Assembly (NCBI GenBank): GCA_965222605.1
Contig: OZ244960.1
Coordinates: forward strand, 1-64,000
Source of the DNA: Candidatus Latescibacterota bacterium
GTDB taxonomy: Bacteria; Latescibacterota; UBA2968
DNA: 64,000 bases
Direction of reading: 5' to 3'
Both the position numbers and the translations under genes were made by a program. The notes under the pieces are model-generated. The model was not told where the DNA came from and did not search any database. It saw only the letters and a list, made by a program, of their open reading frames with translations. This document shows, piece after piece, positions 1 through 51,052 of the stretch; position 1 is the first letter of the stretch, and every line of letters begins with the position of its first letter.

Positions 1-2
1 CG

Positions 3-2015
3 ATTTTAGAAACAGGTCCGGCAGCAATAGAGTTGATCGATAAGATGATTCTGGATCAGACCAAAGAGTCTATGGAACTGTCCAGGATGCGTTCGTGGGT
101 ACAGGGTGATCCAGAGGCTGTGCTGGCTGTTGAATACTACGGCGATTCAGAGGGCGAACTGGTCTCTAAGCTGGAAGAACTCGAAGTGCTGTTGGGAAAT
201 CAGAATCTCGAATATACTTTTTCTCGTGCTATTTCCGATGTCGAGCAGGCCAATGTTTGGAATGTGCGCAAGGCGGGGTTGGGATTGCTCATGGGCGTAA
301 AAGGCGATTCCAAACCCATTGCTTTTGTCGAAGACGCCGCTGTTCCGCCAGAAAGGCTGCCCGATTATATTTCCGAGTTTGGAGCGTTGGTGAAATCGCT
401 CAACACGCGGGCGGGTTATTATGCACACGCCAGCGTGGGCTTGCTGCACGTTAGGCCGATGGTCAATCTCAAGGATGCCGACGAGATCGCCAAAATGAAA
501 TTTATCGCCGAATCTGTGCGCGATTTGGTGATGAAATACGGCGGTGCTGTGAGCGGAGAGCACGGCGATGGTCTGGTTCGAAGTTGTTGGAACGAAACGT
601 TCTTCGGCACAACACTTTACGAAGCTTTTCGGGAGGTCAAACGCGCTTTTGATCCCAAAGGACAGATGAATCCCGGCAAAATTGTCGATGCGCCGATGAT
701 GACTGAAAATTTGCGTTATGGGGCAGACTATCGCGCAAAAGAAATAAATACCCACTTCGATTTTTCTGCCGATGGGGGATTTCACCGCGCCGTTGAAATG
801 TGCAATGGGGTAGGCGAGTGTCGCAAAAAGCTGGAGGGCACGATGTGTCCGTCTTATATGGCGACTCTGGAAGAAGAACATTCGACGCGGGGGCGGGCAA
901 ACGCGCTTCGAGCGGCGATTTCGGGGCGATGGAAAGGCGGGCTTACGGATCATCGCATCAACGATGTGCTCGCGCTCTGTTTGGAGTGTAAGGCCTGCAA
1001 AGCCGAGTGTCCGTCCAATGTGGATATGGCTAAAATTAAATATGAATTTAAGGCACATTATTACGCCAAACACGGGCGACCGTTGCGAGCTTTTTTATTT
1101 GGCAATGTGGAATTGATGGGCAAACTCGGATGTCTTGTTGCACCTCTTGCCAATCGTTTGTCCAGGACGGGTATTTCAAAGTGGATGATGAAGCGTATCG
1201 GTATCGCGCCTGCGCGATCCCTGCCGCCATTTGCGCGTCAGACTTTTACACACTGGTTCGCCCGCCGCAACGCCCCTCAAAAAAATAAACGCGTCGTGTT
1301 TTTTGCCGATACGTACATGACCTACAATTATCCCGAAATTGGCAAAGCAGCTACGGCCTTGTTTGAAGCCGCCGGTTATGAGGTGATTTTGGCGGTGAAG
1401 CGATGTTGTGGCCGCCCGTTGCTTTCGAGCGGTTATATCGACCGTGTCAAAAAAAACGCCCTGTTTAATATTGAGAATCTCTACCAATATACTGAACAGG
1501 GATATCCCATTGTGGGCTTTGAACCGTCGTGTGTTTCGATGTTCACGGATGAATACGGCGATTTAATTGACGATCCGCGCGTGCGTGCCGTAGCCGAAAA
1601 TATTTATACTTTTGAAGCGTTTGTACAGACATTTTCCGAAAAAGGCGAATTTGTCGTGCCATTTACCGACTTAAAAAAAGACATCTTGCTGCACGGCCAC
1701 TGCCATCAGAAAGCCCTGTGGGGTATGGGGCCGTCTGAGGCCGCGTTGGGATTGCCCGAGGGTTTTCGCGTGACGACCATTCAGTCGGGTTGTTGCGGCA
1801 TGGCGGGTTCTTTCGGCTATGAAGCCGAGCACTACGACGTATCGCTCAAAGTGGGCGAGTCGCGGCTGCTTCAGGTGGTTCGCGACGCAGATGCCACAAC
1901 TGATATTGCCGCAGCGGGTTTGTCGTGCAGGCAACAAATTGCGCACGCCACAGGGCGTACTGCCCGCCATCCCGCCGAGGTATTGGCCGACGCCCTGGAT
2001 AAGGGCGATGGGTAA
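3..2015 (+). CDS. FAD-linked oxidase / 4Fe-4S (GlcD-GlcF/YdiJ-like) oxidoreductase, 5'-partial
   Basis: FAD-oxidase C-terminal motifs (HASVGLLHVRP, SGEHGDG), ferredoxin motifs CNGVGEC and CLECKACKAECP, and CCG domains. The frame is open to the window edge. Confidence 0.9.
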   Translation: MLETGPAAIELIDKMILDQTKESMELSRMRSWVQGDPEAVLAVEYYGDSEGELVSKLEELEVLLGNQNLEYTFSRAISDVEQANVWNVRKAGLGLLMGVKGDSKPIAFVEDAAVPPERLPDYISEFGALVKSLNTRAGYYAHASVGLLHVRPMVNLKDADEIAKMKFIAESVRDLVMKYGGAVSGEHGDGLVRSCWNETFFGTTLYEAFREVKRAFDPKGQMNPGKIVDAPMMTENLRYGADYRAKEINTHFDFSADGGFHRAVEMCNGVGECRKKLEGTMCPSYMATLEEEHSTRGRANALRAAISGRWKGGLTDHRINDVLALCLECKACKAECPSNVDMAKIKYEFKAHYYAKHGRPLRAFLFGNVELMGKLGCLVAPLANRLSRTGISKWMMKRIGIAPARSLPPFARQTFTHWFARRNAPQKNKRVVFFADTYMTYNYPEIGKAATALFEAAGYEVILAVKRCCGRPLLSSGYIDRVKKNALFNIENLYQYTEQGYPIVGFEPSCVSMFTDEYGDLIDDPRVRAVAENIYTFEAFVQTFSEKGEFVVPFTDLKKDILLHGHCHQKALWGMGPSEAALGLPEGFRVTTIQSGCCGMAGSFGYEAEHYDVSLKVGESRLLQVVRDADATTDIAAAGLSCRQQIAHATGRTARHPAEVLADALDKGDG

Positions 2016-31807: not shown

Positions 31808-31841
31808 GATGTCATGAGAAAAAACATTGCGCGAGGCCAAT

Positions 31842-34800: not shown

Positions 34801-35144
34801 TTGTTTTTGATGGTGAAGACCAGACGGTTAATAGTCCTATATCTGACGATTCAAAACCCAGTGATCTGGAAACAGATTGGGGCATTTACCCGTCACCTAA
34901 CCCTTTCAATACTGCAACTGTGTTAGGTTTTTACACTACAGGAGGTCCTGTTTATGTGACTATATATAATATCCTGGGACAACCCATCAGACGGTTGGTT
35001 CAACAACATTTGCCAGCCGGATATTATCGGCGTATATGGGATGGTAAAAATGACTCGGGAGCATCTGTGGGATCTGGAATCTATATAGTCCTACTAAAAG
35101 ACAAGGAAGCGATATTTACAAATCGCGTTGCGCTCTTAAAGTGA
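31842..35144 (+). CDS. Secreted protein with five lamin-tail domains (LTD), one Ig-like domain and a C-terminal FlgD-Ig/T9SS-like domain
   Basis: Signal peptide; five (V/L)V(I/F)(N/S)E...D.N.D....D.FVE..N...I.G..L.D repeats; C-terminal PNPFNTAT...IYNILGQ.IR.L...WDGKN..G..VGSGIY. Confidence 0.88.
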   Translation: MMRYWIMVVVLSVLGGGQVLGAETDVVINEILADPPSGDRGDANGDGMWPERSNYEDEFVEILNTGLDTIPIGGWQLSDRDSDNPFTFPENTRIAPGEYIVLFGGGTPNGFGGQVFVDDGKIGKRGLSNSGDVVFLINPTLSDTIARAEWGKEGGKDQSLVRYPEGTGRWVLHSDSPGRGLFSPGKPRSLFDILQSFPEYLDMIEGESVSLIPAIYKDGVPMQLEDEVLWVSWDTTIVRIEQGNKVVAVRAGETEVGFFWRGRESLHTYLRVLEKEKPTLVISEVHPNPAWGEAGDTNRDSVRHTYQDEFVEIANLGENPIDIGGYFLGDDDASADRLFRFPDNTVLDTQAVVVLFGGGEVAVTERVFVDDGRIGDGLSNVGDTVQLLAPDSSTVVASMVYERSTRGVSYARDEDGNYLLHNQIYEDEPTSVGRLKPGDDPIESEGLTEALTVPDGLVFSEILMLPEQVDANNDGVVDRHADAFVELTNISADTLDLSGWLLGDDDIVVSQFFSFPDNVVLLPGGYVTIFGGGTPVGIPGTVLSAEGQIGNGLSSGGDVVHLIMPDSKTVARSVRVPKATPDISWLFSPDDPPELHPKIPGWHAMSPGTSPDGQEAARADFIDTAGRDTLDIFQPPKDLVISEVYPNPATGDAGDTNGDGVRHTYQDEFVEIANLGEHPIDIGGYYLGDDDVPMEKLFRFPDNTMLNPQMVAVLFGGGEVKESDQIFADDGRIGDGLSNGGDTVQLLAPDGSTVISRMTYENAPQGISLARDDNGNYLLHNQIYEGRSISVGRLGHSDDVIERLTAPNGLVFSEILMLPEQVDANNDGVVDRHADAFVELTNTGADTLDLSGWMLGDDDIVVSQFFPFPDDVVLVPGGYVTIFGGGTPVSIPGTVLSAEGQIGNGLSSGGDVVHLILPDGKTVARSVRLPKATPDVSWLLSPDAPPELHPQIPGRHAMSPGTPPVSEVEPDTLNGVNYENVVSGKPIVFDGEDQTVNSPISDDSKPSDLETDWGIYPSPNPFNTATVLGFYTTGGPVYVTIYNILGQPIRRLVQQHLPAGYYRRIWDGKNDSGASVGSGIYIVLLKDKEAIFTNRVALLK
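32680..34732 (+). repeat. Intragenic ~1-kb tandem duplication (32680-33673 vs 33757-34732), two LTDs per copy
   Basis: Long near-identical DNA stretches, e.g. GAACAGGTGGATGCCAATAACGATGGGGTTGTGGATCG in both copies. Confidence 0.9.
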
Positions 35145-37128: not shown

Positions 37129-38022
37129 ATGGTCATTCGCATTTCAAACCTGACAAAAGTATATCGCCGTGGCGCAGTTCCCGCCTTAGACGATGTCACC
37201 TTGAGGATCCCACACGGAACATTTGGTTTGTTGGGGCCCAATGGTGCAGGTAAAACAACGCTGATTAAAATTTTATCAACTCAGATGGACGCATCGAGTG
37301 GTAGCGTGACCATGGATGAGTTCGATCTGGTAAAAGACCGCACAGAGATTCGCCGGCGTCTGGGATATTTGCCCCAGCATTTTGGGACCTATCCCCAATT
37401 GACGGCCTGGGAATTTCTCGATTATATGGCTGTTTTGGGCGGCATACACAATAGAAGAGTGCGTCTGAATCGCGTAGAGCAAGCTCTAAACGAAGTCGGT
37501 TTATACGAAGCGCGCAATCGGCGCTCGGGCACTTTTTCCGGTGGCATGATGCGCCGCCTTGGCATTGCACAGGCCATTCTGGCCGATCCAGAGTTTCTCA
37601 TTGTCGATGAACCCACCGTGGGACTTGACCCGGAAGAACGCATCCGATTCCGGAGTATTTTGGGACGCTTGAGTAGTGATCGCGCAATTTTGATCTCCAC
37701 GCATATAGTGGGCGATATTTCGAGCACCTGTGAAGATCTCGCGGTTTTGGATACAGGACAACTGATCTTTCGCGGTTCTCCCGCAGAACTCATTTCAAAA
37801 GCCGATGGAAAAACGTGGGAAGTACAGGTCAATGATGCTGGCTTTGAAATGCTGTCGCGGGTGTTTCGCGTGGTCACAGTAAATGTTGAAGGCGATCAGA
37901 TGCGTTTGCGTATGGTAGGAGATGGCGAGCCACCCGCTGATGCCGAAGCGATCGCACCTAACCTCGAAGATGCCTATGTCTATTTCGTCGGAGGCGATAC
38001 CACGGGCGAAATCGCAGCGTAA
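37129..38022 (+). CDS. ABC transporter ATP-binding protein (ABC-2/CcmA type)
   Basis: GPNGAGKT, FSGGM, IVDEPT, STH, C-terminal PNLEDAY. Confidence 0.95.
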   Translation: MVIRISNLTKVYRRGAVPALDDVTLRIPHGTFGLLGPNGAGKTTLIKILSTQMDASSGSVTMDEFDLVKDRTEIRRRLGYLPQHFGTYPQLTAWEFLDYMAVLGGIHNRRVRLNRVEQALNEVGLYEARNRRSGTFSGGMMRRLGIAQAILADPEFLIVDEPTVGLDPEERIRFRSILGRLSSDRAILISTHIVGDISSTCEDLAVLDTGQLIFRGSPAELISKADGKTWEVQVNDAGFEMLSRVFRVVTVNVEGDQMRLRMVGDGEPPADAEAIAPNLEDAYVYFVGGDTTGEIAA

Positions 38023-38034
38023 AGGATCAATACC

Positions 38035-41000
38035 ATGCTATCTATTTTTTACAATATATGGGGCGTGGCGCGTTATGAGCGCAAAATGCTCTTTCGAACC
38101 ATAAAATTCCGCATTTTGGGCGGCCTGGGCATGAGCATTCCCGTTTTACTCGGCATCGGCTTTGCCATAGCAGAAGCCAACGGTGCTGAACTACCCGTGG
38201 GAATTGATTCTTATGTCCCGTTTTTAGTGTACAGTTTCTTGCAGACCATCGTCATTGCATTTATTGTGGGTGATTTTAGATCAGCGGATGAACAGGCGCA
38301 TATTTACGAAGTTGTGGCCGGGCGTCCCATTTCAACTGCGGAACTGGTTGCGGGTAAATATCTGGGCATTGTTAGTGCGCTTGCCATTTTGAGTCTGGGG
38401 GTTCTGGTTCTGACCCTGGGCATTCAGGCGGCAAAGATCAGCATAACAGGCAATCCATTTACAATAAAACCCTATATCGGATACCTCGTGTTCATGAACC
38501 TGCCCGCCCTGATTTTTATGTCTTCCGTGACCTTTTTTCTGGGTGCTTTGTTGCGGCGGCAAGCGGCAGTTGCGCTAATTGTGATCGGGTATTTGTTGGC
38601 CGTCCTATTATTCCTGGGCAAGCGATATGACGGCATCTACGATTTTGGTGCTTTTTTTATGCCTCTGTATTATTCCGACCTGATCGGTCTGGCAGATATT
38701 ACGCAAGTGGGGCTACAACGCCTGTTTTACATCTTACTCGGCATTGGATTTTTTGGCTTTTCGATTGATCGATATCCCCGTCTCGCGCATTCCATAGTCG
38801 CGCGATGGTTTGGCCGCGGATGCGCGCTGACCGGTTTTGGTCTGGCTGTGGGCCTTTACTTTTATATGGATGCAGATGCGCAAGACGGAAAAGCGTATCG
38901 CAGTTCATTGCTAAAACAACAGGAAGCGGTTGCGAATATTCCCGTCGCGAAAATAACCCATTACAATCTGGCATTGACGCTGTTGGATCAGGAACCGCTT
39001 GCCGCCTCTGGCACGATTACTTTGAAAAATCCCCACGAAGCCCCGCTCGATACGCTGATTCTTTCACTCAATCCCGGATTCAAAATTCAGAGCCTGACGC
39101 GTGCTAATGGCGATGCAATAGTGTGGGAGCGGACGGGAAGCGTGATCCGCGTCGTGCCCGAAAAACCCCTGCAATCGGAGCGAGAACTCGATCTGATGTT
39201 GGCATACGCGGGTGATATTAACACGAATGGTTTTGATCTCAAACGGGAAAAAGCCAGGCCAAAGTTACGCAAACGCGATAGGTTATTTAATAAAGGATCT
39301 TTGACGGCGTGGATTCGCGACAATTCCATCTTTTTGCCCCCGCGCAGCCGATGGTATCCGGTAACGGGCGTTGATTACGGCTATGAGGATACGCGTGCGG
39401 TCTCTTTTTCAACGGCAAATTTGCAAATAACATATCCACAGGGCATCGAAGTCATTACTCAGGGGCAGGTCGGCAAGACCGATACGCTCGGCACACAGGT
39501 AACGCGCCAATGGATCGTTGAAAAACCCGTGCCTGTCCTGTCGCTGAATGCTGGCGAATACCGCGTTTATCGCGCGACCATTCACGACATCGAATGCGCC
39601 CTTTACGCCCACCCATCTCATCTGCGTCCAGTCCGATTTTTTGAAGGTGCCGAAGAAGAGATTTTGCGTGCGCTCGAGCAAATTATGGACGCAATGGAAC
39701 AGGAATCGGGCATGAAATATCCCTATTCCAGCCTTTCTTTAGTGGAAATCCCCTTCCATGTTCAATGGTATTACGAAGGCTGGGAAGAAAAAGGCGGGTT
39801 GACGCAGCCCGGCGTGTTGATGATTGAAGAAGATGTGTTCATGCGGCAGCAATTTACCCGCGATTTTAAACGCTATCAGGATCGCTCGCGCGGCAATCGA
39901 GAACCCAAAGACATTAAAAAAGATCTTTTGGTACGCGCGGTTTTTTCGACCTTTTTTTCCAGAGAAGGAAATTCGGGCAGACAGGGACAGCCTGGCGGAT
40001 TGTTTCGCAGTCCTGTTGTTCAACTCTGGGCTTATGACAAGCAGTTTGTGGGCGAACATTATTCTCTGCTCAAAAAGGGCATGCCCATGTATCTCCAGAA
40101 TGATTTAAGCACCAATATGACCTCCGCTTTTTATTCGAGCCAACGACGCGGTGGCGGTGGCGATAGAGGGCGTGGCGGGCCCGGCGGGCGCGGTAGGCCC
40201 GGCGGGGGATCGGGCGCGGGTTGGGATACGTTGGTCGCTAAAATGCAGCGAAAATCATTTGCCGATTTAAATCCCGAAACGCAGGCCGGTCTCTATCGCC
40301 AGGTTCTCGACGCCAAGGGGCCAGCGCTTTTTCAAATGATGGAATCTTTTTTGGGTGAGGAAACATTTCGCACGGTCTTAGACGATATAGACCACAATCA
40401 CAAATACGAAGACATCGATTTTTCGACCTTTGAACGCGCTGCTGTGGGCGATACCACAGAAAGTGAAGAGAGCCAAAAATTGCAGCGTCTCGTCAACGAC
40501 TGGATTTTTAGTACAGAAATCCCGGGCTATACCCTCACAAGGGTAAAAGCTTTGAAGATGGATGACGGTTTTGGAATGGTGGTCTTTCAATTGATTCTGA
40601 GAATTAAGAACAGCGAACCGGGCAGGGGATATGTGCAAATTACAGCTACGGGGCGAGGCGATGAGGCCGTAAAGGGCGTCGAGATTGAAGGTGGGCAGGA
40701 AATTGAAGTTTCAATGGTTCTGTGGGAGCAGCCCTTCAGGGTGATGGTCGAACCCTTTTTCGCACGCAATCGCCGCCCTCTGATGTCCCCCGTGCGCGTT
40801 CCCGAAAATGTCACAGAGGGATTTCCTACTTCTTATGTCAAAGACGTGACGGGCGAAGATTCTGGTCCTGTTGAGATTATTGTAGATAATGACGACGACG
40901 GATTTTCAATGCCCGTGCGACGCGCAACGCGCTACTTCCGCCCGGGACTCAAAGGCGGCAACTGGCGCGAGCAAGGCATGCCAATGGCCTTTGGGCGATT

Positions 41001-41484
41001 TGAGACAAATTTCCGAATGAAGCCTCCGGGTGATGGCGCACAGCCGGCTGTGTGGACAGCGCAAATCCCCAGAGATGGCGAATTTGATGTGGGCTTCTTT
41101 TTTCTCGATCCCTCAATGGCCAGGCGCATGCGCGTCGGATCGACCTTTACACTGACTATTTTTCACGGGGGCAAGGCCGATACACTCGAAATGGAACGCG
41201 ACCAGATGAAAGCGGGATGGAATTATCTGGGGCGATACAAATTTGCCGAAGGCGAAGAAGCCGTAGTCGAATTGTCTGACCGCGCAGAGGGGCGCCTGTA
41301 TGCCGATGCCGTGCGATGGCGCTTTTTTGATCCGCAAAACCCCGATGCTTACGAAGATGAAATGCCCACCTTTATGTTTGGACGCGGCAGAGGTAGACCT
41401 GATGGCGGGCGTGGGGATCGCGGCGGCGAGAGACGTGGTCCCGGCGGTGATAGACGCGGCGGGGGCGGGGTGTTGGGATTTTAA
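38035..41484 (+). CDS. ABC-2 permease fused to an M1-aminopeptidase-like (HEXXH-less) domain and a golvesin/Xly-CBD-like domain
   Basis: About 7 N-terminal TM helices; M1-like ITHYNL, SRWYP, YPYSSLSLVEIP, KG...F.M; C-terminal IIVDNDDDGF...GWNYLGRYKF...ADAVRW; RGG-rich inserts. Confidence 0.8.
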   Translation: MLSIFYNIWGVARYERKMLFRTIKFRILGGLGMSIPVLLGIGFAIAEANGAELPVGIDSYVPFLVYSFLQTIVIAFIVGDFRSADEQAHIYEVVAGRPISTAELVAGKYLGIVSALAILSLGVLVLTLGIQAAKISITGNPFTIKPYIGYLVFMNLPALIFMSSVTFFLGALLRRQAAVALIVIGYLLAVLLFLGKRYDGIYDFGAFFMPLYYSDLIGLADITQVGLQRLFYILLGIGFFGFSIDRYPRLAHSIVARWFGRGCALTGFGLAVGLYFYMDADAQDGKAYRSSLLKQQEAVANIPVAKITHYNLALTLLDQEPLAASGTITLKNPHEAPLDTLILSLNPGFKIQSLTRANGDAIVWERTGSVIRVVPEKPLQSERELDLMLAYAGDINTNGFDLKREKARPKLRKRDRLFNKGSLTAWIRDNSIFLPPRSRWYPVTGVDYGYEDTRAVSFSTANLQITYPQGIEVITQGQVGKTDTLGTQVTRQWIVEKPVPVLSLNAGEYRVYRATIHDIECALYAHPSHLRPVRFFEGAEEEILRALEQIMDAMEQESGMKYPYSSLSLVEIPFHVQWYYEGWEEKGGLTQPGVLMIEEDVFMRQQFTRDFKRYQDRSRGNREPKDIKKDLLVRAVFSTFFSREGNSGRQGQPGGLFRSPVVQLWAYDKQFVGEHYSLLKKGMPMYLQNDLSTNMTSAFYSSQRRGGGGDRGRGGPGGRGRPGGGSGAGWDTLVAKMQRKSFADLNPETQAGLYRQVLDAKGPALFQMMESFLGEETFRTVLDDIDHNHKYEDIDFSTFERAAVGDTTESEESQKLQRLVNDWIFSTEIPGYTLTRVKALKMDDGFGMVVFQLILRIKNSEPGRGYVQITATGRGDEAVKGVEIEGGQEIEVSMVLWEQPFRVMVEPFFARNRRPLMSPVRVPENVTEGFPTSYVKDVTGEDSGPVEIIVDNDDDGFSMPVRRATRYFRPGLKGGNWREQGMPMAFGRFETNFRMKPPGDGAQPAVWTAQIPRDGEFDVGFFFLDPSMARRMRVGSTFTLTIFHGGKADTLEMERDQMKAGWNYLGRYKFAEGEEAVVELSDRAEGRLYADAVRWRFFDPQNPDAYEDEMPTFMFGRGRGRPDGGRGDRGGERRGPGGDRRGGGGVLGF

Positions 41485-41501
41485 TTTAAGGGAGGATGGA
41501 T

Positions 41502-42569
41502 GTGAAATTTGATTTTTGTCCAAAAATATTTTTGGTAATGGTCCTTTGTGGGCTGGTCGCCTGTGAGCGGCAAGCGGAACAGCGCACAGTTGATCTGACG
41601 GTTCCCGTTACTGTTCAATCTGTGGAGACGGGAACAATCGAATCCATTGTGACGGCTACCGGAACCCTCAGACCAGTGCGCGTGGCCCAGATCACAACGG
41701 AAATTCGCGGAAGTCTGTACTGGAGCAAAGGGAGCAACAACCGCTTGCTCGCCAAGGGGTCGGAGGTTAAAAAGGGGCAAACCATAGCGAAAGTCGACAG
41801 TGATGAATGGGTTGTCGGCGCGCGGGTGGAAGCGCGTAAACTGGCGGTTGAGACAACCAGGCGAACGCTAGAGGAGCAAGAAACCCTGTTTAGCCGACAA
41901 TTGGCAACGGAAATGAACGTTGAAAATGCGCGCAAAGCATGGGCCGATGCAGAAGCCAACTACCAGGATGCCCTCATCAAGATCGATAAAACCAGGCTTA
42001 TAGCCCCCATTCATGGCGTCATGTCGGAACTTGCGGATATTACGCAGGGAACGCTGGTGACTCCAAATACCACAATCGCAAAAATTATGGATTATTCACA
42101 GTTATATGTCGATCTGAAAATTCCAAATGCCCAGATTATTAACGTGAAATTGGATCAGGGCATCCGCGTGAGCAATTACGCTTTGCCCGAAGAAATTTTT
42201 GAGGGCGAAATAGTCGAGATGGATCCCGCCATCGATCCGGTCACGCGCACGGTTCAGGTCGTTGGGTTGGTCGATAATCCCGACTTGCTTTTGCGAGCGG
42301 GTATGTTTGTCAAAACAGAAATAGTCACGGAATCGCGGCAAAATGTCGTACTTATTGCGCGCAATCTCGTTTTGCGGCGGCGAAATCAGAAGGTCGTTTT
42401 TGTCGAAGAAGAAGGCCGCGCACAACAGCGAGAAGTCGAAACCGGCCTGGAAGACCGAGATCGCGTGGAAATTGTGGTTGGACTTGAACCGGGAGAACAA
42501 TTGATCACGAGCAATTACGAAACACTGAGGCCGCGGACTCGAGTGCGGGTCACGGGAGATAGACGATGA
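41502..42569 (+). CDS. RND efflux periplasmic adaptor (MFP), lipoprotein
   Basis: Lipobox LVA-C; GSEVKKGQ, IAPIHG, IDPVTRT, LRAGMF, GLEPGEQLI. Start is GTG 41502 or ATG 41496. Confidence 0.93.
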   Translation: MKFDFCPKIFLVMVLCGLVACERQAEQRTVDLTVPVTVQSVETGTIESIVTATGTLRPVRVAQITTEIRGSLYWSKGSNNRLLAKGSEVKKGQTIAKVDSDEWVVGARVEARKLAVETTRRTLEEQETLFSRQLATEMNVENARKAWADAEANYQDALIKIDKTRLIAPIHGVMSELADITQGTLVTPNTTIAKIMDYSQLYVDLKIPNAQIINVKLDQGIRVSNYALPEEIFEGEIVEMDPAIDPVTRTVQVVGLVDNPDLLLRAGMFVKTEIVTESRQNVVLIARNLVLRRRNQKVVFVEEEGRAQQREVETGLEDRDRVEIVVGLEPGEQLITSNYETLRPRTRVRVTGDRR

Positions 42570-45500
42570 ATTTGCCGGAATTTTCAACGCGATATCCCGT
42601 GACAATTGCCATGGCGACCCTCGCGGTGGTATTGCTCGGCTGGATATCACTGGACGGTTTGGGAACCGATCTCTTGCCCGATTTGCAGACGCCTGTCGTC
42701 ACCATAGACCTAACAGCACCGGGCAAATCGCCCATCGAGATCGAAGAAATCTACACGCGCAGACTCGAACGCGATGTGAGCACCATTAAGGGCGTCAAGC
42801 GCGTATATTCGATTACCCGCTCGGGACAAGCCGTGGTCATTGCGGAATTTGCCTGGGATGCGGACATGGATTATGGGTTGCTCGACGTGCAAAAAAAAGT
42901 GGGGCGCTATGCGGCAAATGAAGATGTATCGCAGTTGGATGTGACGCGCGAAGACCCGCTCGCGCTCGCGGTGATGCGAATAGCGATTACGGCAGACAAA
43001 AATACAGAACTCGACGCACTAATGGGTACGGTAGAATTGCTGATCAAACCGAAATTGGAAGCCCTCGAAGGCGTGGCATCTGCCGAGGTGGAAGGGGGGA
43101 CAGAAAAGGAAGTGCGCGTTTCGCTAGATCCCTATTTGCTCGAAGCGTTTGGACTTTCACCCGATGCAGTCATCAACCGCATCGCGCAAGCGAATGCCGA
43201 TGTATCCGGAGGCACACTCAGAGAAAATCAGCAGTCGTATCTGGTCAAAGCCCTCGGTCGCTTAAATGACATAAACGATGTACGAGAAGTCATTGTGGGA
43301 GAAAAGCGTGGGGGAGGGGGCGCGGTTTCTGGAGACCGCGTGCCGGTGCGCGTGCGCGACGTGGGCACGGTTGATCTGGAATATCAAGAGCGAGAAACCA
43401 TTGTACGCCTCAATGGACACGAATGCGTTGGCCTCGCCATTTACAAAGAAGCCGGCAGCAATACAGTCGCTGTGGTCAACACGGTATTGGATGCAATAGA
43501 CGACCTCGAAGCAGATTTGAGCGGCATGCAGTTCACAACTGTCGAAAATCAGGCGCGATTTGTCGAAGATGCCATAGGCGAAGTCGAAACATCTGCTATA
43601 CATGGGGCATTTTTGGCGATTCTCGTGCTTTTGCTCGCGTTGCGGAGTTGGACGGTGACGCTGGTGATTGGGTTGGCGATTCCCATTTCCGTATTGGCGA
43701 CGTTCACGCTCATGTACTTTGAGGACCTGACCCTGAATATTATGACGCTGGGCGGGTTGGCGCTGGGCGCGGGTATGCTCGTTGACAATGCCATTGTAGT
43801 TATTGAGAATATTTATCGGCATCTGGAAAGCGGCGAGGATGCGCGCACAGCATCGAGCCGCGGCGCATCTGAAGTCGGCGTGGCAATTCTGGCCTCAACG
43901 TTGACGACCGTGGCTGTTTTTTTGCCCATTGTCTATTTGCAAGGGCTGGCTGGCAAACTCTTTGTGGATCAGGCGTGGACTGTTGCATTTTCGCTGCTGT
44001 CATCGCTGGTTGTGGCAATGACGACGATTCCGATGCTGACGTCGCGCATTTTTAGGCGGTTGAATACCACGCGCCACATGACCATTCGGTCGGACAAATA
44101 CTATCGGTTTCTCAATAGTATTTTGAATCACAAACCCATCCTGCTCGTCGTCGTGCTGCTGATTCTTGGCGGAACGGGATATATCGCCCGCGAGTTGCAG
44201 ACCGAATTTATCCCGCGCGAAGATCAGGGGCTGTTTCAAATTGACCTCACACTATCCGAAGGCTCGCGTGTAGAACTAAGCGATCGGGTCGCCCTGCACG
44301 CCAAAGAGATCGTCGAAAGCGTTGGGGGGGACGATGTGGCGCATGTGTACGCGCTGGTCGGCCTCAATCCCGCCCGGGTATCGAGCGGAGGCGAACCGAC
44401 GGGTCCCAATCGCGCGACTCTATCGGTGGCTTTAGAGACACAGCGATCGCGCAGTGTCAGCGAATTGGTGCGCGATCTGGATCCCATTTTGAGTGCTATG
44501 CACGATATTGAGGTGAAATACAAGCTGCACGAAACCGCGCTCGAAGGCGTGATGGGGGGGCAAGAAGCACCCATTCAGGTCGAAGTGTCTGGGGAAAATC
44601 TCGATATTTTGGCGCGTATCACAAAAGAACTTCAGGTGAGGATCGAGGACCTGCCTTCGGTGTACAATGTACGCACGAGTTTTCAAGGTGGACAGCCAGA
44701 AGTCGATCTGGCGATTCGCGATGAAGTGGCATCGGCTTTTGGACTGACCACGCAGACCATCAGCCGCACATTGGAAAGACAACTGTCGGGTGAAGTTGCC
44801 GGCGAACTGTCTAAAGACCAGCGCACGAGAGATATCCGCGTGAAATATCGAGATGTCGATCTGCGCGAACTCCGCACCATGCAAATCGAGGGATCAGATG
44901 GCGCAATCCTGACATTGGGGGATATTGCCGATCTCAATATTATTGAAGGTCCCCGCGAAATTTTGAGAGAAAATCAGCGGCGCGTGGGGCGCATTACGGG
45001 ATATCTCACAGAAGGGCGCATTTTAAGTGAATCCATTGCCGACATACGCGCCACCATACAGGCTATGGCCGTGCCGTCGGGGTACCGCATTGAAATTGGC
45101 GGGGAAGAGCGCGAGCGCGCAGCGTCATTTGAAAGTCTCAAATTCGCACTCCTGCTTTCAATTGTGCTGGTCTATATGGTTATGGCATCGCTATTTGAAT
45201 CCACGCTCCATCCGTTCACCGTGATGTTTTCCGTTCCTTTAGCTGGCGTCGGTGTGGTGTTCGGATTCTATCTTTTGGGCGAACCGCTCAGTGTAATGGC
45301 CTATATCGGCATTATTATGCTGGGCGGTATTGCGGTCAACGATGCGATCGTGCTCGTGGATCGCATCAACCAACTCAGGCAAGCTGGCATGGCGTTGCGA
45401 GAAGCGGTCCTCCAGGGCGGGCAGGACCGCTTGCGCCCCATTATGATGACGAGTGCGACGACCATTCTCGCTCTGCTGCCCATGGCAATCGGCTTTGGCG

Positions 45501-45631
45501 AGGGGGCAAAATTGCGCGCGCCTATGGCTATTGCCGTCATTGCCGGTCTGGTGACATCTACATTGATGACCTTACTCGTGATACCTACCCTGTATGAACT
45601 GATTGATCGACTTCGGGGGAAATCCGCGTGA
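42566..45631 (+). CDS. RND efflux permease (AcrB/MdtB/SwrC-like)
   Basis: TM4 GMLVDNAIVVIENI, TM10 GIAVNDAIVL, TM11 RLRPIMMT; 1021 aa. Confidence 0.95.
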   Translation: MNLPEFSTRYPVTIAMATLAVVLLGWISLDGLGTDLLPDLQTPVVTIDLTAPGKSPIEIEEIYTRRLERDVSTIKGVKRVYSITRSGQAVVIAEFAWDADMDYGLLDVQKKVGRYAANEDVSQLDVTREDPLALAVMRIAITADKNTELDALMGTVELLIKPKLEALEGVASAEVEGGTEKEVRVSLDPYLLEAFGLSPDAVINRIAQANADVSGGTLRENQQSYLVKALGRLNDINDVREVIVGEKRGGGGAVSGDRVPVRVRDVGTVDLEYQERETIVRLNGHECVGLAIYKEAGSNTVAVVNTVLDAIDDLEADLSGMQFTTVENQARFVEDAIGEVETSAIHGAFLAILVLLLALRSWTVTLVIGLAIPISVLATFTLMYFEDLTLNIMTLGGLALGAGMLVDNAIVVIENIYRHLESGEDARTASSRGASEVGVAILASTLTTVAVFLPIVYLQGLAGKLFVDQAWTVAFSLLSSLVVAMTTIPMLTSRIFRRLNTTRHMTIRSDKYYRFLNSILNHKPILLVVVLLILGGTGYIARELQTEFIPREDQGLFQIDLTLSEGSRVELSDRVALHAKEIVESVGGDDVAHVYALVGLNPARVSSGGEPTGPNRATLSVALETQRSRSVSELVRDLDPILSAMHDIEVKYKLHETALEGVMGGQEAPIQVEVSGENLDILARITKELQVRIEDLPSVYNVRTSFQGGQPEVDLAIRDEVASAFGLTTQTISRTLERQLSGEVAGELSKDQRTRDIRVKYRDVDLRELRTMQIEGSDGAILTLGDIADLNIIEGPREILRENQRRVGRITGYLTEGRILSESIADIRATIQAMAVPSGYRIEIGGEERERAASFESLKFALLLSIVLVYMVMASLFESTLHPFTVMFSVPLAGVGVVFGFYLLGEPLSVMAYIGIIMLGGIAVNDAIVLVDRINQLRQAGMALREAVLQGGQDRLRPIMMTSATTILALLPMAIGFGEGAKLRAPMAIAVIAGLVTSTLMTLLVIPTLYELIDRLRGKSA

Positions 45632-48600
45632 CACTTGCTGGTATTGCCGTTCGGCGGCCCGTGACCACGGCCATGTTTTTTATTGGTCTGGCTATTTTGG
45701 GTGCGATTTCACTGGATCGATTGCCCGTTCAGATATTTCCAGAACTCGTTCGCCCAGAAGTCTTTATTACGCTCAATCAGCAGGGCTATTCGCCCGAACA
45801 GGTCGAGCGAGATCTGGTGATGCCCGTCGAGAGGGAAGTGGGTAAACTCGAAGGTATTGAGGCGTATGAGTCCTTTTCGCGCCAGAACAATGGCGGGGTA
45901 CGCATTTCCTACGCACCCAATACGGATATGAAATTCGCATTGCTGCAGCTCGAGAGCCGCATCACGCGCCTGCAACCGCTTTTGCCCGAAAGAACGCGGG
46001 TCAATGTACAGCGCTTTGATTCTTCTGACTTGAGTGCCTCAGTGATGCAAATTCACGTGTTGGGCGAGGGTGATATAAACTGGTTGCGTGAATTTGCCGA
46101 GGAGAAAATCAGGCCGGAATTAGAAGCGGTCGATGGCGTTGTCAACGCGCAAGTCCTGGGCGGACAAAGAACAGCTATTGAAATTATTGTCGATCCATTG
46201 ATGCTACAAGCACACCAGCTTTCGATGTCTGATATTCGCAATCGCATCAATGCGTTTAATACACGGCGACAATATCTCGGGCGGGTGTATGACGGCAATC
46301 AGACCTATGCGGTCAGCATTCAGGGCCAATTTACAGATCTCGTGCAAATCCGCAGGGTCGTAATCAAGCCGGAATTGCCCCTGCACCTTGGCGACATTGC
46401 CGAAATCCGCTACGGTCTTCAGGAGCGCACGGACCTGCAACGCATCAATGGCAAAGCCGCCGTTGGCATTCGCATTCAAAAAGACGACGAAGCCAATCTG
46501 ATCGACATTGCAGAGATACTCGAAGACACCATCGAACGCATAAATCGCGATCTCGTCTATGAAAATATTCAGCTCGTGATCAGCCAGAACCAGGCAGAGA
46601 TTATGAACGAAGCCCTCAATATCCTCAAACGGGCCGCTGTTGTCGGGGGATTGCTCGGGCTTTTTGTTTTGTTCTTGTTTTTGAGAAATCTGCGCTTTGT
46701 CGCTGTTTTGCTCCTCGCCATTCCGTGTTCTTTGCTGCTCACATTTAATCTGATGTATATGTGGAATCTCAGTTTGAATGTGCTCTCGATGTGCGGCCTC
46801 GCGCTTGCAATTGGTATGTTGACGGACAATGGCATTGTGGTCATGGAAAATATCTTCAAGCATTTTGAACAGGGCAAATCCCCCAAAGAAGCCGCAAAAG
46901 CCGGAACCGATGAGGTCGCACGCGCCGTTGTTGCGGCAACAGCGACTACGATTACGGTTTTTTTACCCGTAGTTTTTATTCAAAGCGACTTTCAGGATAT
47001 CCTGCGAGAACTCGCGCTGTCTATGACATTTCCGCTGCTTGCCTCTCTTCTCGTTGCTCTTACACTCGTGCCTGCCCTCGCATCAAAAACCCTCTCCCTC
47101 GCATCCAGGCCGCCAACAGAAACAGGCACGTTGATTGAGATGTACACAGTGTGTCTCAAAGCGGGCTTGCGCCACAGAATCAGCGTGTCGCTGGGTATTG
47201 TCGGCGCGCTTGTCGTCACGTTGATTATTTCTTTTTTCTTTATGCTGCAACAAGATATTCGCCGAGAAGAAAGCCGTTTCACCGTCTATATCAGCATGCC
47301 CGAAGGCACGACCATTGAAGCCCTCGATGCTGTTGTTGGCGAAATTGAAAGTGCTGTGCGAGGACTCAAAGGTGTGGATCGCTTTACGACCAGTATTAGC
47401 GAAATCCAGGCGAGTATAAATGTAGAGCTTTTGCCCTTATCCGAACGCCCCGATCAGATTTCTGTCGATCTCATCAAAGAGAATCTCGAGGAGTCATTCG
47501 CCGATGTCCAAGACGCGATTGTGAGCTATGAGGCCATCGCGCGCACGGGTAGGGGAGGTGGTGGTGGACGCGGAGGTGGGGGGAGGGGGATTCGGGGCGC
47601 CGGTCAGGCCTCTGGCGGATTCAATCTGGAAGGGGGGACACCTTCGGAAATGGCTGTGATTCGCGGCTACGATTTTACAGTGCTTCAAATGCTGGCCGAC
47701 GATCTGGTCTATCGCCTCGAAGAATTGGAGGAAATCGATCCCAATAGCGTGCGAGCCGATGCAGAACGCGGCGCGTCTGAAGTGCATGTTTTGCCCGATG
47801 AAGAAGTGATGTTTGATCGGCGATTGCAGGTTCGTCAGGTGCTCAATGCCGTATCCGACGCCAATCCGCGCGGAGCGCGGTCCAATATTGCATTTCTCAC
47901 ACCCGAAGGCACTGAAATCCCGATTGATATTCGCAATGTTGAAGATCCCGAAGAAGAGGGGGAAGGCATTGCGGGGTTGAGACAGACGCCGATTCTGGGT
48001 GCGGGGGGGACGTACATTCCCCTTGTGGAAGTTTCGCATGTGCGCCGAGATCAGGGCAGAAGCATGATTTTGCGCACCGATCAATCGCGGCGCGTGATTG
48101 TGTCCTATAATTTCGGCGACGAAATTTTGCAATCTCAACCTCTGCTGGAAGCCTCCCGCGCTTATGTGCAAGACGTAGTCTCCGAAATGGTGCTGCCCGA
48201 AGGGTATAGCATCGAAATGATCGAGGCAGAGGAAGAGACGATTTATTACTGGATGATCGGCATTGCCGCGTTGCTCATTTTTATGATTTTGGCCTCTTTG
48301 TTTGAATCGCTTTCCGCGCCTTTGATTATTCTGTGTACGTTGCCCACAGCAATTATTGGATCGTGCTGGGCACTGGTCTTATCGGGTACGGGATTGACCC
48401 AACAAGAAGGGCCAATGGCACTGTTGGGATTTATTATTTTGGGCGGTATTGCCGTCAACAACGGGATCGTGCTGATTGACGCGATTGAAACCCTTCGCCG
48501 CCGCCGCGGGTTCAGGCGAGAACGCGCAGTGCTTGCGGCGAGCCGGTCGCGCGTGCGTCCCATTTTAATGACTTCGGCGACCACCATTTTGGGCGTGTTG

Positions 48601-50352
48601 CCTCTGGCACTCAAGTTTGGCGGCGATTACGAAATTTGGCCGCCCTTTGCGATTACACTACTGGGAGGGCTGGCAGTTTCAATGGTTTCTACTCTCGTAT
48701 TTATCCCCGTGGTGTACATGGGAATTGACCAGACCAAAGCCTGGCTGGCGGATATTGGCTGGTTCGGGATTGTATTGGGGACGGCAGCGGCAGCGGGATT
48801 GACGTATTGGGTTGACGATTATTACCAGAGTTTGTTCTGGACCTGTCTTCTGGCATTGCCGGCGTGGATGGTGTGTATGGGCGCGGTCTGGATTGTGCAG
48901 CGCATTTATCGCTCGCGTATGGCTTCTCGCGTTGAGATCGGCAGGGTCGATCATCTCGAAATTCGCAATCTGACAAAAATTTACGGCGCGCCGGGGCAGT
49001 TTAAGCGAGAATGGGATCGTTTTAAGCGGCGCAATCAGCGCCTTTCAGAGCGCGGACAGGTAATGGTAGATAAAAAGGCGATTCAGGACAGTTTGTGGTG
49101 GAAGTTGCCTCTTCTGGCTCTGCTACTTTATTTGGAAACCTATTTTGAACAGGGAACATGGATCTTTTTAACAGGGCTCGCCCTGTGGGGCCTCGTGCAT
49201 CATCTCGTGCTATGCACGGCTGCTTTGCGCGGTTTCCAGATTGAGAACCGATGGATATTGCAAATCGCCCGATTGATTTTGCCGCTGGTCTTTGTGGCCT
49301 TTGTTCATTGGCGTTTGGAACTTCTGTCTTTGACCATAGCCACTTGTGCAATTTACTTGCTCTATCGCATTATCGGATTTTTGGCAGATCGCGTTGCACG
49401 AGGCCGCGTTGATCCCGAACATATACCGGGGCGGTTAGGACCTGTTAAAGGTATTGTGTATCGCGGTGCTGCAGCCGTTCCCATCATTGGTGTTCCCCGC
49501 CCGCAATTCCAGGCCCTCGGCGGCGTGAGTCTCGATATTCCGCGCGGGATGTTTGGGCTTTTAGGCCCCAATGGCGCGGGCAAAACCACGCTGATGCGGA
49601 TTGTGTGTCGGGTTTTGTCGTCAAATTACGGATCAGTGCTCGCCAATGGCAAAACGCCGCTCACCCATCGGAATATGCAGGGGGTGATTGGATATTTGCC
49701 GCAGCACTTTGGCCTGTATTTGCACATGTCTGCGTATAATTATCTGGAATACCGCGCGCTTTTGGAGGGATTTAAGGACGGGGTAGCACGGCGCAAGCGC
49801 GTTCAGGAATGTCTGGAGCAGGTCAATCTGTGGGACAGGCGCGACGACCCGATTGGTTCGTTCTCTGGCGGTATGAAACAACGCGTGGGCATTGCACAAA
49901 CCCTGTTGCACTTACCACAGATTATTGTGGTGGATGAGCCAACAGCGGGATTGGATCCACTCGAGCGGATCCGGTTTAGAAATTTACTGGCGCGATTTAG
50001 CCAGGAAAAAATCATTATTTTTTCCACGCATATTGTCGAAGATATTGCGGGCAGTTGCAACCGATTGGCCGTGCTGAATCACGGCAAGGTGCTCTATACG
50101 GGAACCCCACTTGAAATGCGCGATTTGGCGCGCGATAAGGTGTGGGAAGCCCTGCTACCAGATCCGCGTTTTGAAGCGTTGGAACGCGACCTGGATATGA
50201 TTACACATGTGCGCGTGCCCGATGGGATTCGGGTGCGATTTCTCGCAACCGATCCCATCCCAGAAGCGCGTGTAGTTGATCCCACCCTCGAAGATGCATA
50301 CCTCTATCTTTTGCGACATGGCGATGAATACAAACAGGCTAACATGGCGTGA
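45628..50352 (+). CDS. RND permease fused to extra TM helices and a C-terminal ABC ATPase domain
   Basis: Full RND ([22 protein letters not shown]), then about 6 extra TMs, then GPNGAGKT / FSGGM / VVDEPT / STH / PTLEDAY, all in one 1574-aa frame. Confidence 0.92.
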   Translation: [1574 protein letters not shown]

Positions 50353-51052
50353 GTTGTTTTTCTTTGTCGGGAAATTGCACAGCCTGAGCATGAGAATCGT
50401 TTTTCACCGCAAAATGATTTTTATGTTCGGCGGAATTGTGGCGTATTACGCAATTTTGTACGCGATCGCAATCTGGCGTCCCGGTGAGGGGTTTTCAGTC
50501 GAGCAAGCCCTCCATGTATTGGTCGAAGTGCCAGGCACGGTGCTTGCGATCTATCTAACGATGGATCTGGTGTCCGGGGAGAGAGATAAGGATACGCTTG
50601 AAATTTTGTTCAGTACGGCTATCAGCCACTACGCGACATGGTCCGTGAGAATTGTGTCGATCTGTGCTGCGCTATTTGCCACGCTGATGGTGATGAGCAC
50701 GATTTCCTACTATTTTTTTGCAGAGTTTCCCTATCTCCTGGGCGGATTGAATGCCTGTATCCCTGCCTTTTTTATGGTGGGGGCCACATTTCTATTTTCG
50801 GTATTGTGTCGCAGTGGCAATGCGGCCGGCATGCTCGCTGTTGGGCTTTTGATTGCGGTTTTGCTTTCGACCGAGACGTTTGAGGATACATCGTATTACC
50901 TTTTTCTCAAACCATTTGACGCGCCTTCAGATTTAGATACCAGCTTGTGGATAAATCGCGTGGTGTTAAACCGCGCGGGCATTGCCATTCTGGGTATATT
51001 GTTCATTTTTCTGGCTCTGAGACGAATGATAGAGCGCGAAAAGCTGCTGTAA
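50324..51052 (+). CDS. ABC-2 type permease
   Basis: About 6 TMs; ERDKDTLEILFST coupling-helix motif; overlaps the upstream stop. Confidence 0.85.
   Translation: MNTNRLTWRELFFFVGKLHSLSMRIVFHRKMIFMFGGIVAYYAILYAIAIWRPGEGFSVEQALHVLVEVPGTVLAIYLTMDLVSGERDKDTLEILFSTAISHYATWSVRIVSICAALFATLMVMSTISYYFFAEFPYLLGGLNACIPAFFMVGATFLFSVLCRSGNAAGMLAVGLLIAVLLSTETFEDTSYYLFLKPFDAPSDLDTSLWINRVVLNRAGIAILGILFIFLALRRMIEREKLL

Follow-up and report, generated by a model that had tools for sequence, protein, structure and literature searches.

Can the chain of an ATP-binding cassette (ABC) ATPase leave its nucleotide-binding domain (NBD) between the first and second strands of the fold, cross the membrane several times, and return to complete the same domain? 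This is the question raised by a locus of Candidatus Latescibacterota bacterium (GenBank assembly GCA_965222605.1, contig OZ244960.1), of which I analyzed the first 64,000 nucleotides (hereafter the window); its genome is 98.7% complete with 5.4% contamination and comes as one contig of 6.34 Mb. One open frame on the forward strand of the window (45628..50352) encodes a protein of 1574 residues in which an AcrB-type resistance-nodulation-division (RND) permease continues in frame into a C-terminal ABC ATPase. NBDs are normally soluble, with the tyrosine of the A-loop stacking on adenine, and they are treated as modules that contact membrane domains through non-covalent coupling helices only; here the chain is predicted to leave, span the membrane four times and re-enter, and the site of this excursion is the very hairpin on which the adenine-stacking residue sits, within a protein joining both of the main efflux motors, RND and ABC. 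I will argue that this NBD is, with high confidence, split in sequence yet not in fold, a confidence that covers the structural reading alone (a split NBD, an insert with four spans, and a first strand that sits in the sheet), and then turn to what such an arrangement might be for.

The initial annotation of this stretch, made from the letters alone, had strand 1 of the ATPase lying 176 residues ahead of strand 2, and the split is borne out by the coordinates, by the homologues and by a shuffle test. The 10-residue strand-1 segment (residues 1110-1119, nucleotides 48955-48984) closes with Tyr1119, strand 2 (ALGGVSLDI) begins at Ala1296 (nucleotide 49513), leaving 176 residues between the two, and the Walker A motif GPNGAGKT occupies nucleotides 49564-49587. 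The Asp-Glu pair of Walker B falls at residues 1436-1437 (VDEPT), the H-loop STH is present, and Pfam ABC_tran (PF00005) matches residues 1299-1440 (E 4.1e-26; 92.7 bits, cut-off 25). No catalytic motif is missing, from Walker A through the Q-loop, the signature and Walker B (catalytic glutamate included) to the H-loop, and the catalytic columns K280, Q320, S374, G375, G376, D397, E398 and H429 (in the numbering of the structural model described below, in which 1039 is subtracted from the residue number of the frame) are invariant in an alignment of 73 rows. The fused ATPase is complete and catalytically canonical, of the ABC-2/DrrA/NosF kind, and the solved sequences nearest to it are the NBDs of ABCA proteins, TM_1403 and NosF, none of which covers the insert. 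On the permease side, Pfam ACR_tran (PF00873) matches residues 5-1033 over profile positions 3-1020 of 1021 (596.2 bits), a full-length match, and the region between the two assignments, residues 1034-1298, is without a match to any Pfam or NCBIfam family.

A useful internal reference is the stand-alone paralogous NBD encoded upstream in the same window, which shares 43-47% identity with the fused NBDs, keeps all catalytic motifs, and has the unbroken strand 1-strand 2 hairpin that the annotation had attributed to it, with a loop of six residues. NCBIfam NBD profiles match this free paralogue from position 1 and the fused NBD from approximately position 15, which is what a displaced first strand predicts. 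When a 10-residue matrix built from 34 stand-alone NBDs was run over all six frames of the window (approximately 128,000 positions), scores of 12 or more were obtained at two sites only, namely 37135 (15.3, strand 1 of the free NBD) and 48955 (17.1); and among 2000 shuffles of the 1574-residue protein none reached 17.1, the top shuffle scoring 13.1.

The homologues tell the same story. A search with the last 535 residues matched at least 8000 proteins, and the best 120 of these are mostly contig-end pieces of RND-ABC fusions (38-93% identity, 85-100% query coverage) with source names that include Latescibacteria, Acidobacteria, Bacteroidales, Odoribacter, Prolixibacteraceae and Krumholzibacterium; an exhaustive library search returned many further full-length proteins of 1550-1600 residues. 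In an alignment of 86 rows (the query and 85 matches having at least 260 residues ahead of Walker A), the strand-1 motif I.I.NL.K.Y is aligned in every row and the A-loop position is aromatic throughout (Tyr in 85, Phe in one), with 187-309 residues (most commonly 203) separating the aromatic from Walker A; Lys78 of strand 1 (model numbering) is invariant in the 73 rows. An alignment of homologues had been proposed as a check on the annotation, and the relatives do keep the split arrangement. When residues 1100-1301 were compared with whole genomes of the window's phylum, 84 of 168 matched at E <= 1e-5, with matches in all 20 other genomes of the genus and in 34 of the 52 high-quality genomes of the phylum; all 84 carry frames without stops, approximately 1570-1600 residues long where the contig permits, and the window's own genome holds one copy of the insert. 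A scan of the genome collection with generic ABC motifs found RND-ABC fusions at two of 80 loci (L001 and L002).

Selection on the region points the same way: against 11 orthologues from the genus, the ratio of nonsynonymous to synonymous substitution rates is 0.131 for the two linker helices that precede strand 1, 0.134 for the soluble start of the insert, 0.136 for its four helices, 0.108 for its end and 0.029 for the NBD core. Both the fusion and the split are genuine and maintained by selection. That they are instead an artefact of assembly or frameshift error, or a relic in which the strand-1 segment is a dead remnant and the NBD lacks strand 1, is barely credible, since the frames are open in 84 of 84 matching genomes, the matching proteins come from several phyla, the motif score was unreached in the shuffles, Lys78 is invariant and the aromatic nearly so, purifying selection extends across linker and insert, and the structural model puts the strand in the sheet; I found no points in favor of this explanation. 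Separately, an internal start at Met1098 that would give a separate NBD protein was considered and rejected: this methionine is not conserved, no stop interrupts the frame, and purifying selection acts on the linker helices.

What, then, does the predicted fold look like? AlphaFold2, given residues 1040-1574 (535 residues) and the 73-row alignment, returned a model with a mean predicted local distance difference test score (pLDDT) of 92.0 and a predicted template modeling score of 0.83. Helices 5-27 and 30-62 (model numbering, here and below) come first; the strand-1 segment follows as strand 70-80 (pLDDT block 97); the insert is modeled as helices 85-90, 92-102, 110-133, 137-161, 167-191, 194-218 and 232-244, the four membrane helices among them (pLDDT blocks 71-97) being 24-25 residues each and joined by loops of 3, 5 and 2 residues; and strands 255-266 and 268-273 then lead into Walker A. 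In every one of the 50 entries that VIA-align listed, the alignment starts between model residues 64 and 70, paired with the opening residues of the solved NBD. TM0544 (1vpl) aligns over 234 of its 238 residues (root-mean-square deviation 1.5 A, Z 28.2; model 69..524 on chain 2..239) and LptB (4p31_B) over 225 of 230 (Z 28.0; model 69..523 on chain 2..231), and the closest folds to the fused NBD are TM_1403, TM0544, LptB and the ABCG NBDs. Because nearly all 1vpl residues align at this small deviation, with the first strand falling on model residues 69-80, strand 1 lies in the NBD sheet of the model, and the A-loop strand is at the beta-1 position of the predicted sheet, as in solved NBDs; an AlphaFold model had been suggested as the place to look for exactly this. 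Behind the NBD, the fusion has a C-terminal domain in common with the stand-alone paralogue, and this domain aligns to the C-terminal domains of TM_1403 (4yer) and NosF.

The topology of the insert can be approached through hydropathy, charge and the same model. Averaged over 19 residues, hydropathy in the query peaks at 1.75-1.94 in every insert helix but the first, which reaches the threshold of 1.2 in the family average only, and the two linker helices (transmembrane helices TM13 and TM14) peak at 1.56 and 2.01; the four hydrophobic stretches named at the outset all fall in the predicted helices TM15 to TM18 (Table 1), and the extra helices carry conserved Trp, Pro and Tyr positions. Counted as mean Lys plus Arg per segment over the 73 rows, the hairpin loops placed outside hold almost none (0.0 in 28-29, 0.1 in 134-136 and 0.2 in 192-193), and the segments placed inside are rich in them (7.2 in 81-109, with 8 in the query; 1.0 in loop 162-166; 8.1 in 219-254, with 6 in the query). 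The C-terminus of an RND permease is cytoplasmic, as established for AcrB, so that two and then four spans counted from there would leave both halves of the NBD in the cytoplasm. The predictions fit an even topology, a positive-inside pattern and a cytoplasmic location for both NBD halves, in keeping with the even number of spans initially called for; neither an odd number of spans nor a strand outside the NBD, the two outcomes set beforehand as counting against the annotation, is seen in hydropathy, charge or model. As to the origin of the helices, profile-profile comparisons of hairpin with hairpin and of the hairpins with the linker pair gave probabilities of 49%, 83% and 8% over 16-41 columns, which for membrane helices is too weak to speak for a duplication, and residues 1-256 found no usable match in the ESM Atlas.

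Table 1. Parts of the RND-ABC fusion and the genes that surround it in the window.
Feature	Coordinates	Strand	Description	Basis
RND permease part of fusion	45628..48726	+	residues 1-1033; 12 transmembrane helices and periplasmic domains	Pfam ACR_tran, E 1.4e-178
TM13 and TM14	48757..48930	+	residues 1044-1066 and 1069-1101; hydrophobic linker helices between RND TM12 and NBD strand 1	AlphaFold2, hydropathy
NBD strand beta-1	48952..48984	+	ends in A-loop Tyr1119	AlphaFold2 strand 70-80; structural alignment to solved NBDs, from model residues 67-70 and chain residues 1-2; matrix score
First soluble part of insert	48985..49071	+	basic; short helices at residues 1124-1129 and 1131-1141; motif G.P..F.REW	AlphaFold2 helices 85-90 and 92-102; family consensus
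Predicted membrane helices of insert	49072..49398	+	four helices in two hairpins: TM15 (residues 1149-1172), TM16 (1176-1200), TM17 (1206-1230), TM18 (1233-1257)	AlphaFold2, hydropathy
Last soluble part of insert	49399..49506	+	basic; helix at residues 1271-1283; motif P.IG....F ahead of strand 2	AlphaFold2 helix 232-244; consensus
Remaining NBD	49507..50142	+	strands 2-3, Walker A, Q-loop, FSGGM signature, Walker B, H-loop His1468	Pfam ABC_tran
C-terminal domain behind NBD	50143..50352	+	beta strands and helix; motif LEDAY; stop codon	AlphaFold2 strands 466-500, helix 515-534
Stand-alone paralogous NBD	37129..38022	+	297 residues; unbroken strand 1-strand 2 hairpin	Pfam ABC_tran, E 1.8e-30, from profile position 1
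Large ABC-2-type permease with M1-peptidase-like region and Golvesin_C	38035..41484	+	1149 residues	Pfam Golvesin_C, E 3.2e-14
Periplasmic adaptor (HlyD-type membrane fusion protein)	41496..42569	+	357 residues; kept in related loci	Pfam HlyD_D23, E 2.2e-24
Plain RND paralogue	42566..45631	+	1021 residues; overlaps fusion start; conserved upstream neighbour	Pfam ACR_tran, E 3.2e-231
Small type V (ABC-2) permease	50318..51052	+	244 residues; start overlaps fusion 3' end	AlphaFold2 fold match

The genes around the fusion belong to a conserved cluster of six or seven (window 37129-51052; loci L001 and L093-L103), which by protein source names ranges over Latescibacterota, Bacteroidota, Acidobacteriota, Gemmatimonadota and Krumholzibacteriota. 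Eight of 13 loci of this long-insert form repeat the order plain RND, fusion, small permease, usually with the free NBD, large permease and adaptor upstream; the neighbours in the other five (L095, L096, L100, L101 and L104) were left unresolved by crude parsing of open reading frames (ORFs) and are not scored as lacking genes. One of the eight syntenic loci is from a Bacteroidales genome, includes an outer-membrane factor and has a small permease 25% identical to that of the window (E 6e-25). Some related loci also carry an outer-membrane factor; in the window's cluster, no gene for one lies between 41484 and 41496. In locus L095 (9166-12302, minus strand) the plain RND partner appears as two ORFs of 594 and 451 residues covering both halves, which might reflect a frameshift, an error in the sequencing or a gene that is truly split.

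The small permease is recognizable chiefly by its fold. Its AlphaFold2 model has six long helices at a middling pLDDT of 78.8, and against 48,161 solved chains each of the best 16 matches is a type V ABC membrane domain (Z 10.4-15.4 over 203-229 of 244 residues), among them ABCH-9C (Z 15.4), ABCG25 (15.1), ABCG2 (15.0), NosY (14.8) and Wzm (10.4). The protein scores 21.1 bits with Pfam ABC2_membrane_2 (PF12679), below the cut-off of 27.2, and has no NCBIfam match, and some of its homologues carry precomputed PF12698/PF12679 assignments. Its gene overlaps the 3' end of the fusion and is a conserved neighbour, which speaks for an NBD pinned near this permease; a complex prediction joining model residues 1-250 to the 244-residue protein (score 0.00, mark 0.32) speaks neither for nor against binding. 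The large permease is a side observation in its own right, an ABC-2/M1-like/Golvesin_C protein of 1149 residues within an efflux operon: its ABC2_membrane_5 and Peptidase_M1 matches are weak and below their cut-offs, and the gene is kept in the operons of both insert forms. Farther upstream, outside the cluster, the window encodes a protein of 1105 residues (31827-35144) that matches the Lamin Tail Domain five times (E 5.9e-74) and, weakly at its C-terminal end, an FlgD Ig-like domain (26.6 bits, under the cut-off of 27).

The second form of the fusion is as informative as the first. Sister RND-ABC fusions of approximately 1420-1465 residues (e.g., L002/L110) place strand 1 after a soluble linker of about 100 residues behind the RND permease, with no two-helix linker and no membrane helices in the strand 1-strand 2 loop, which holds only 13-50 extra soluble residues; the distance from the aromatic to Walker A is 37-75 residues, compared with 22-24 in free NBDs. 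This short form is present in 23 of 35 genomes of another phylum, and it shares with the window form the RND-NBD fusion, the NBD clade, the site of the enlarged loop and the gene set. In four of the five loci examined for gene order, the genes run in the order adaptor, free NBD, small permease, plain RND, an ABC-2/M1-like protein of about 920 residues, the fusion, and an ORF of approximately 540-570 residues (the neighbours in the fifth, L109, were again unresolved by ORF parsing and are not scored as absent); the small permease is 27-33% identical to that of the window in three of these four loci, without a BLAST match in L108, and in L002/L110 the terminal ORF has a match to Pfam OEP. A tree of 142 NBD cores (quick IQ-TREE run, midpoint root, SH-aLRT support only) groups the RND-fused NBDs in one starred set of 63 rows (SH-aLRT 97), comprising 40 long, 13 short and 10 mostly truncated, and all 40 long-insert rows fall inside a subset of 50 rows with a support of 93. 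Taken with its midpoint root, the tree reads as one fusion event in which the loop was probably already enlarged, followed by one main gain of the membrane module.

Could the six extra helices be a transport domain of their own? ABC membrane domains usually have six helices, and these six are under purifying selection and have the conserved Trp, Pro and Tyr positions mentioned above, so TM13 to TM18 could be envisaged as forming the membrane pathway of the ABC transporter together with the 244-residue permease or with a second copy; the fusion would then be a half-transporter in which strand 1 of the NBD is threaded between the second and third helices. I regard this as distinctly improbable: residues 1034-1298 have no Pfam or NCBIfam match, no solved chain aligned past the NBD (280 residues at most, in searches with the whole model, the helical module not being searched alone), the operon already supplies two type V permeases for its two NBDs, and the short form does without these helices.

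The explanation that I favor instead treats the helices as an anchor. In this scheme, beta-1 with its adenine-stacking Tyr1119 would directly follow the two extra linker helices; the chain would then exit the NBD, continue as two short basic helices lying along the membrane's inner face, span the membrane four times as two tight hairpins, return through a basic juxtamembrane helix, and rejoin the NBD at beta-2 and Walker A, with the cytoplasmic halves reassembling into a normal NBD. The domain would thereby be held to the membrane by three connections, two of them flanking the A-loop strand, and the six extra helices would serve as a built-in anchor or scaffold holding the ATPase to the membrane, with the RND body and the type V permease(s) next to it. 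Two-step efflux, with one pump moving substrate across the inner membrane and an RND pump emptying the periplasm, is an established concept, and the composite machine might be of this sort, an ATP-driven ABC-2 transporter that feeds, or works with, an RND-adaptor-outer-membrane duct, both handling one and the same substrate. I put the probability of this whole explanation, function included (a split NBD and an anchor or scaffold within an RND and ABC-2 machine), at approximately 0.55, and its functional side (membrane insertion in vivo, the contacts between subunits and their division of labor) is what I infer from the layout of the protein and its operon. The gene orders invite a further thought: in the short-form loci (L106-L110, and L002), the free NBD adjoins the small permease and the fusion adjoins the large ABC-2/M1-like protein, the reverse of the window, and these swapped adjacencies suggest one heteromeric ABC unit composed of the free and fused NBDs with the small and large permeases, which in turn suggests one fused protomer per RND trimer, although both steps are speculation.

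Several considerations weigh against this explanation. All of the structural statements are predictions; AlphaFold is biased toward completing a known fold; the placement of strand 1 at beta-1 was judged from aligned ranges and counts rather than from inspected contacts; and hydropathy and charge bias cannot separate full transmembrane helices from re-entrant hairpins. Foldseek and VIA-align, queried with the entire 535-residue model and not with the helical module by itself, returned NBD matches only. Finally, the sister fusions have no membrane helix at this site, so anchoring an NBD that is already fused looks redundant and the insert may have a more specific role. Because the short form manages without membrane helices, tethering alone would not be the whole story, and the added role may be docking of the small permease, transmission of force to the RND part or control of NBD closure.

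Force transmission deserves separate consideration, since the initial annotation proposed that the anchor could couple ATP binding mechanically to the RND permease, or else pin the NBD next to its permease. In a mechanical transducer, TM14, TM15 and TM18 would be pulled as the NBD binds ATP and closes, and would so drive or gate the RND cycle, with ATP supplementing or replacing the proton motive force. The geometry is suggestive, given that strand 1 lies 7 residues past TM14 and the chain is back in the membrane about 29 residues on, and so is the proton relay: relative to E. coli AcrB, the fused RND retains D407 and R971, with D408 replaced by N and K940 by N in the window and in most of 19 fused homologues. 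However, the plain partner RND likewise has D-N at 407-408 and N at 940, often with an Asp at 941 (N-D, compared with N-N in the fused one). The HAE1-type relay (D407, D408, K940 and R971) is kept only in part by the fusion and its partner alike, and the relay of both RND paralogues (RND TM4 and TM10) differs from the HAE1 type. Because the plain partner lacks both residues too, the loss of K940 and D408 looks like a property of the family rather than a mark of proton coupling having been lost, of which the sequences give no clear indication for the fused RND. With a dedicated type V permease encoded beside the NBD, and short-insert fusions that join RND and NBD through a soluble linker of about 100 residues with no flanking helices, I consider the transducer unlikely. 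A more elaborate hybrid pump, in which ATP binding at the A-loop is passed through TM14, TM15 and TM18 to the RND part, the tripartite duct is powered or gated by ATP instead of protons alone, and an asymmetric unit of two NBDs and two permeases sits on one protomer of an RND heterotrimer, would be somewhat less likely still.

Every single domain of this protein is familiar; the manner of joining is not. Unusual in its own right, the host protein unites a complete RND permease and a complete ABC ATPase in one chain, with homologues of 1550-1600 residues in several phyla and no curated family name; no NCBIfam model names an RND-ABC family, and the best-matching RND and NBD models fall far short of their cut-offs (483 against 1250 for RND). 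Full-text searches of the literature, with subscription journals outside their coverage, did not find an RND-ABC fusion or membrane helices inside an NBD, and among sequence and fold matches in the PDB there was no member with membrane helices inside the NBD or with an NBD fused to an RND permease, so the conserved stitching of an NBD into the membrane is apparently undescribed. The operon is widespread and unnamed, and what current annotation makes of it is a generic 'RND permease' and a generic 'ABC ATPase'. If the predictions hold, nature has provided a test of the covalent strain that an NBD hairpin can bear, a route to asking whether primary and secondary active pumps physically couple, and, in the sister group without the membrane insert, a paired comparison.

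How does this arrangement relate to known systems? The CFTR protein has an insertion in NBD1 between strands 1 and 2 (residues 404-435) that is described as positioned to impede NBD dimer formation (PMC2217481). The regulatory insertion of CFTR occupies the same hairpin site as the insert of the window, and it is tempting to consider that the bacterial insert controls NBD dimerization in a similar manner, with the membrane or a lipid-like substrate as the trigger, all the more so when every RND-fused NBD has an enlarged loop, even in the short form. However, the CFTR segment is 32 residues long, soluble and mobile and carries a protein kinase A phosphorylation site, whereas the bacterial insert has 176 residues, is hydrophobic, and is confidently predicted to form four membrane helices; nor was a sensor motif found in it, which leaves slim odds for a regulatory insertion of this type.

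Other likenesses are found one domain at a time. The sequence and fold of the fused NBD and the fold of its 244-residue neighbour are like those of the ABC-2/type V transporters (NosDFY, Wzm-Wzt, ABCG and ABCA). With AcrAB-TolC (RND) and MacAB-TolC (ABC), the locus shares an adaptor and an inner-membrane pump, with an outer-membrane factor in related loci; such tripartite pumps use either an RND or an ABC motor, whereas the protein of the window has both in one polypeptide. The operon also places two RND paralogues side by side, and MdtBC is an RND pump made of two paralogues. A looser precedent than the CFTR insertion comes from the coiled coils of SMC and Rad50, which, like the domains of UvrA, are large NBD insertions through which the chain leaves and re-enters the ABC fold; these are soluble, lie elsewhere in the fold, and none is known to be a membrane segment, in contrast to the four predicted helices that separate the two strands of this hairpin.

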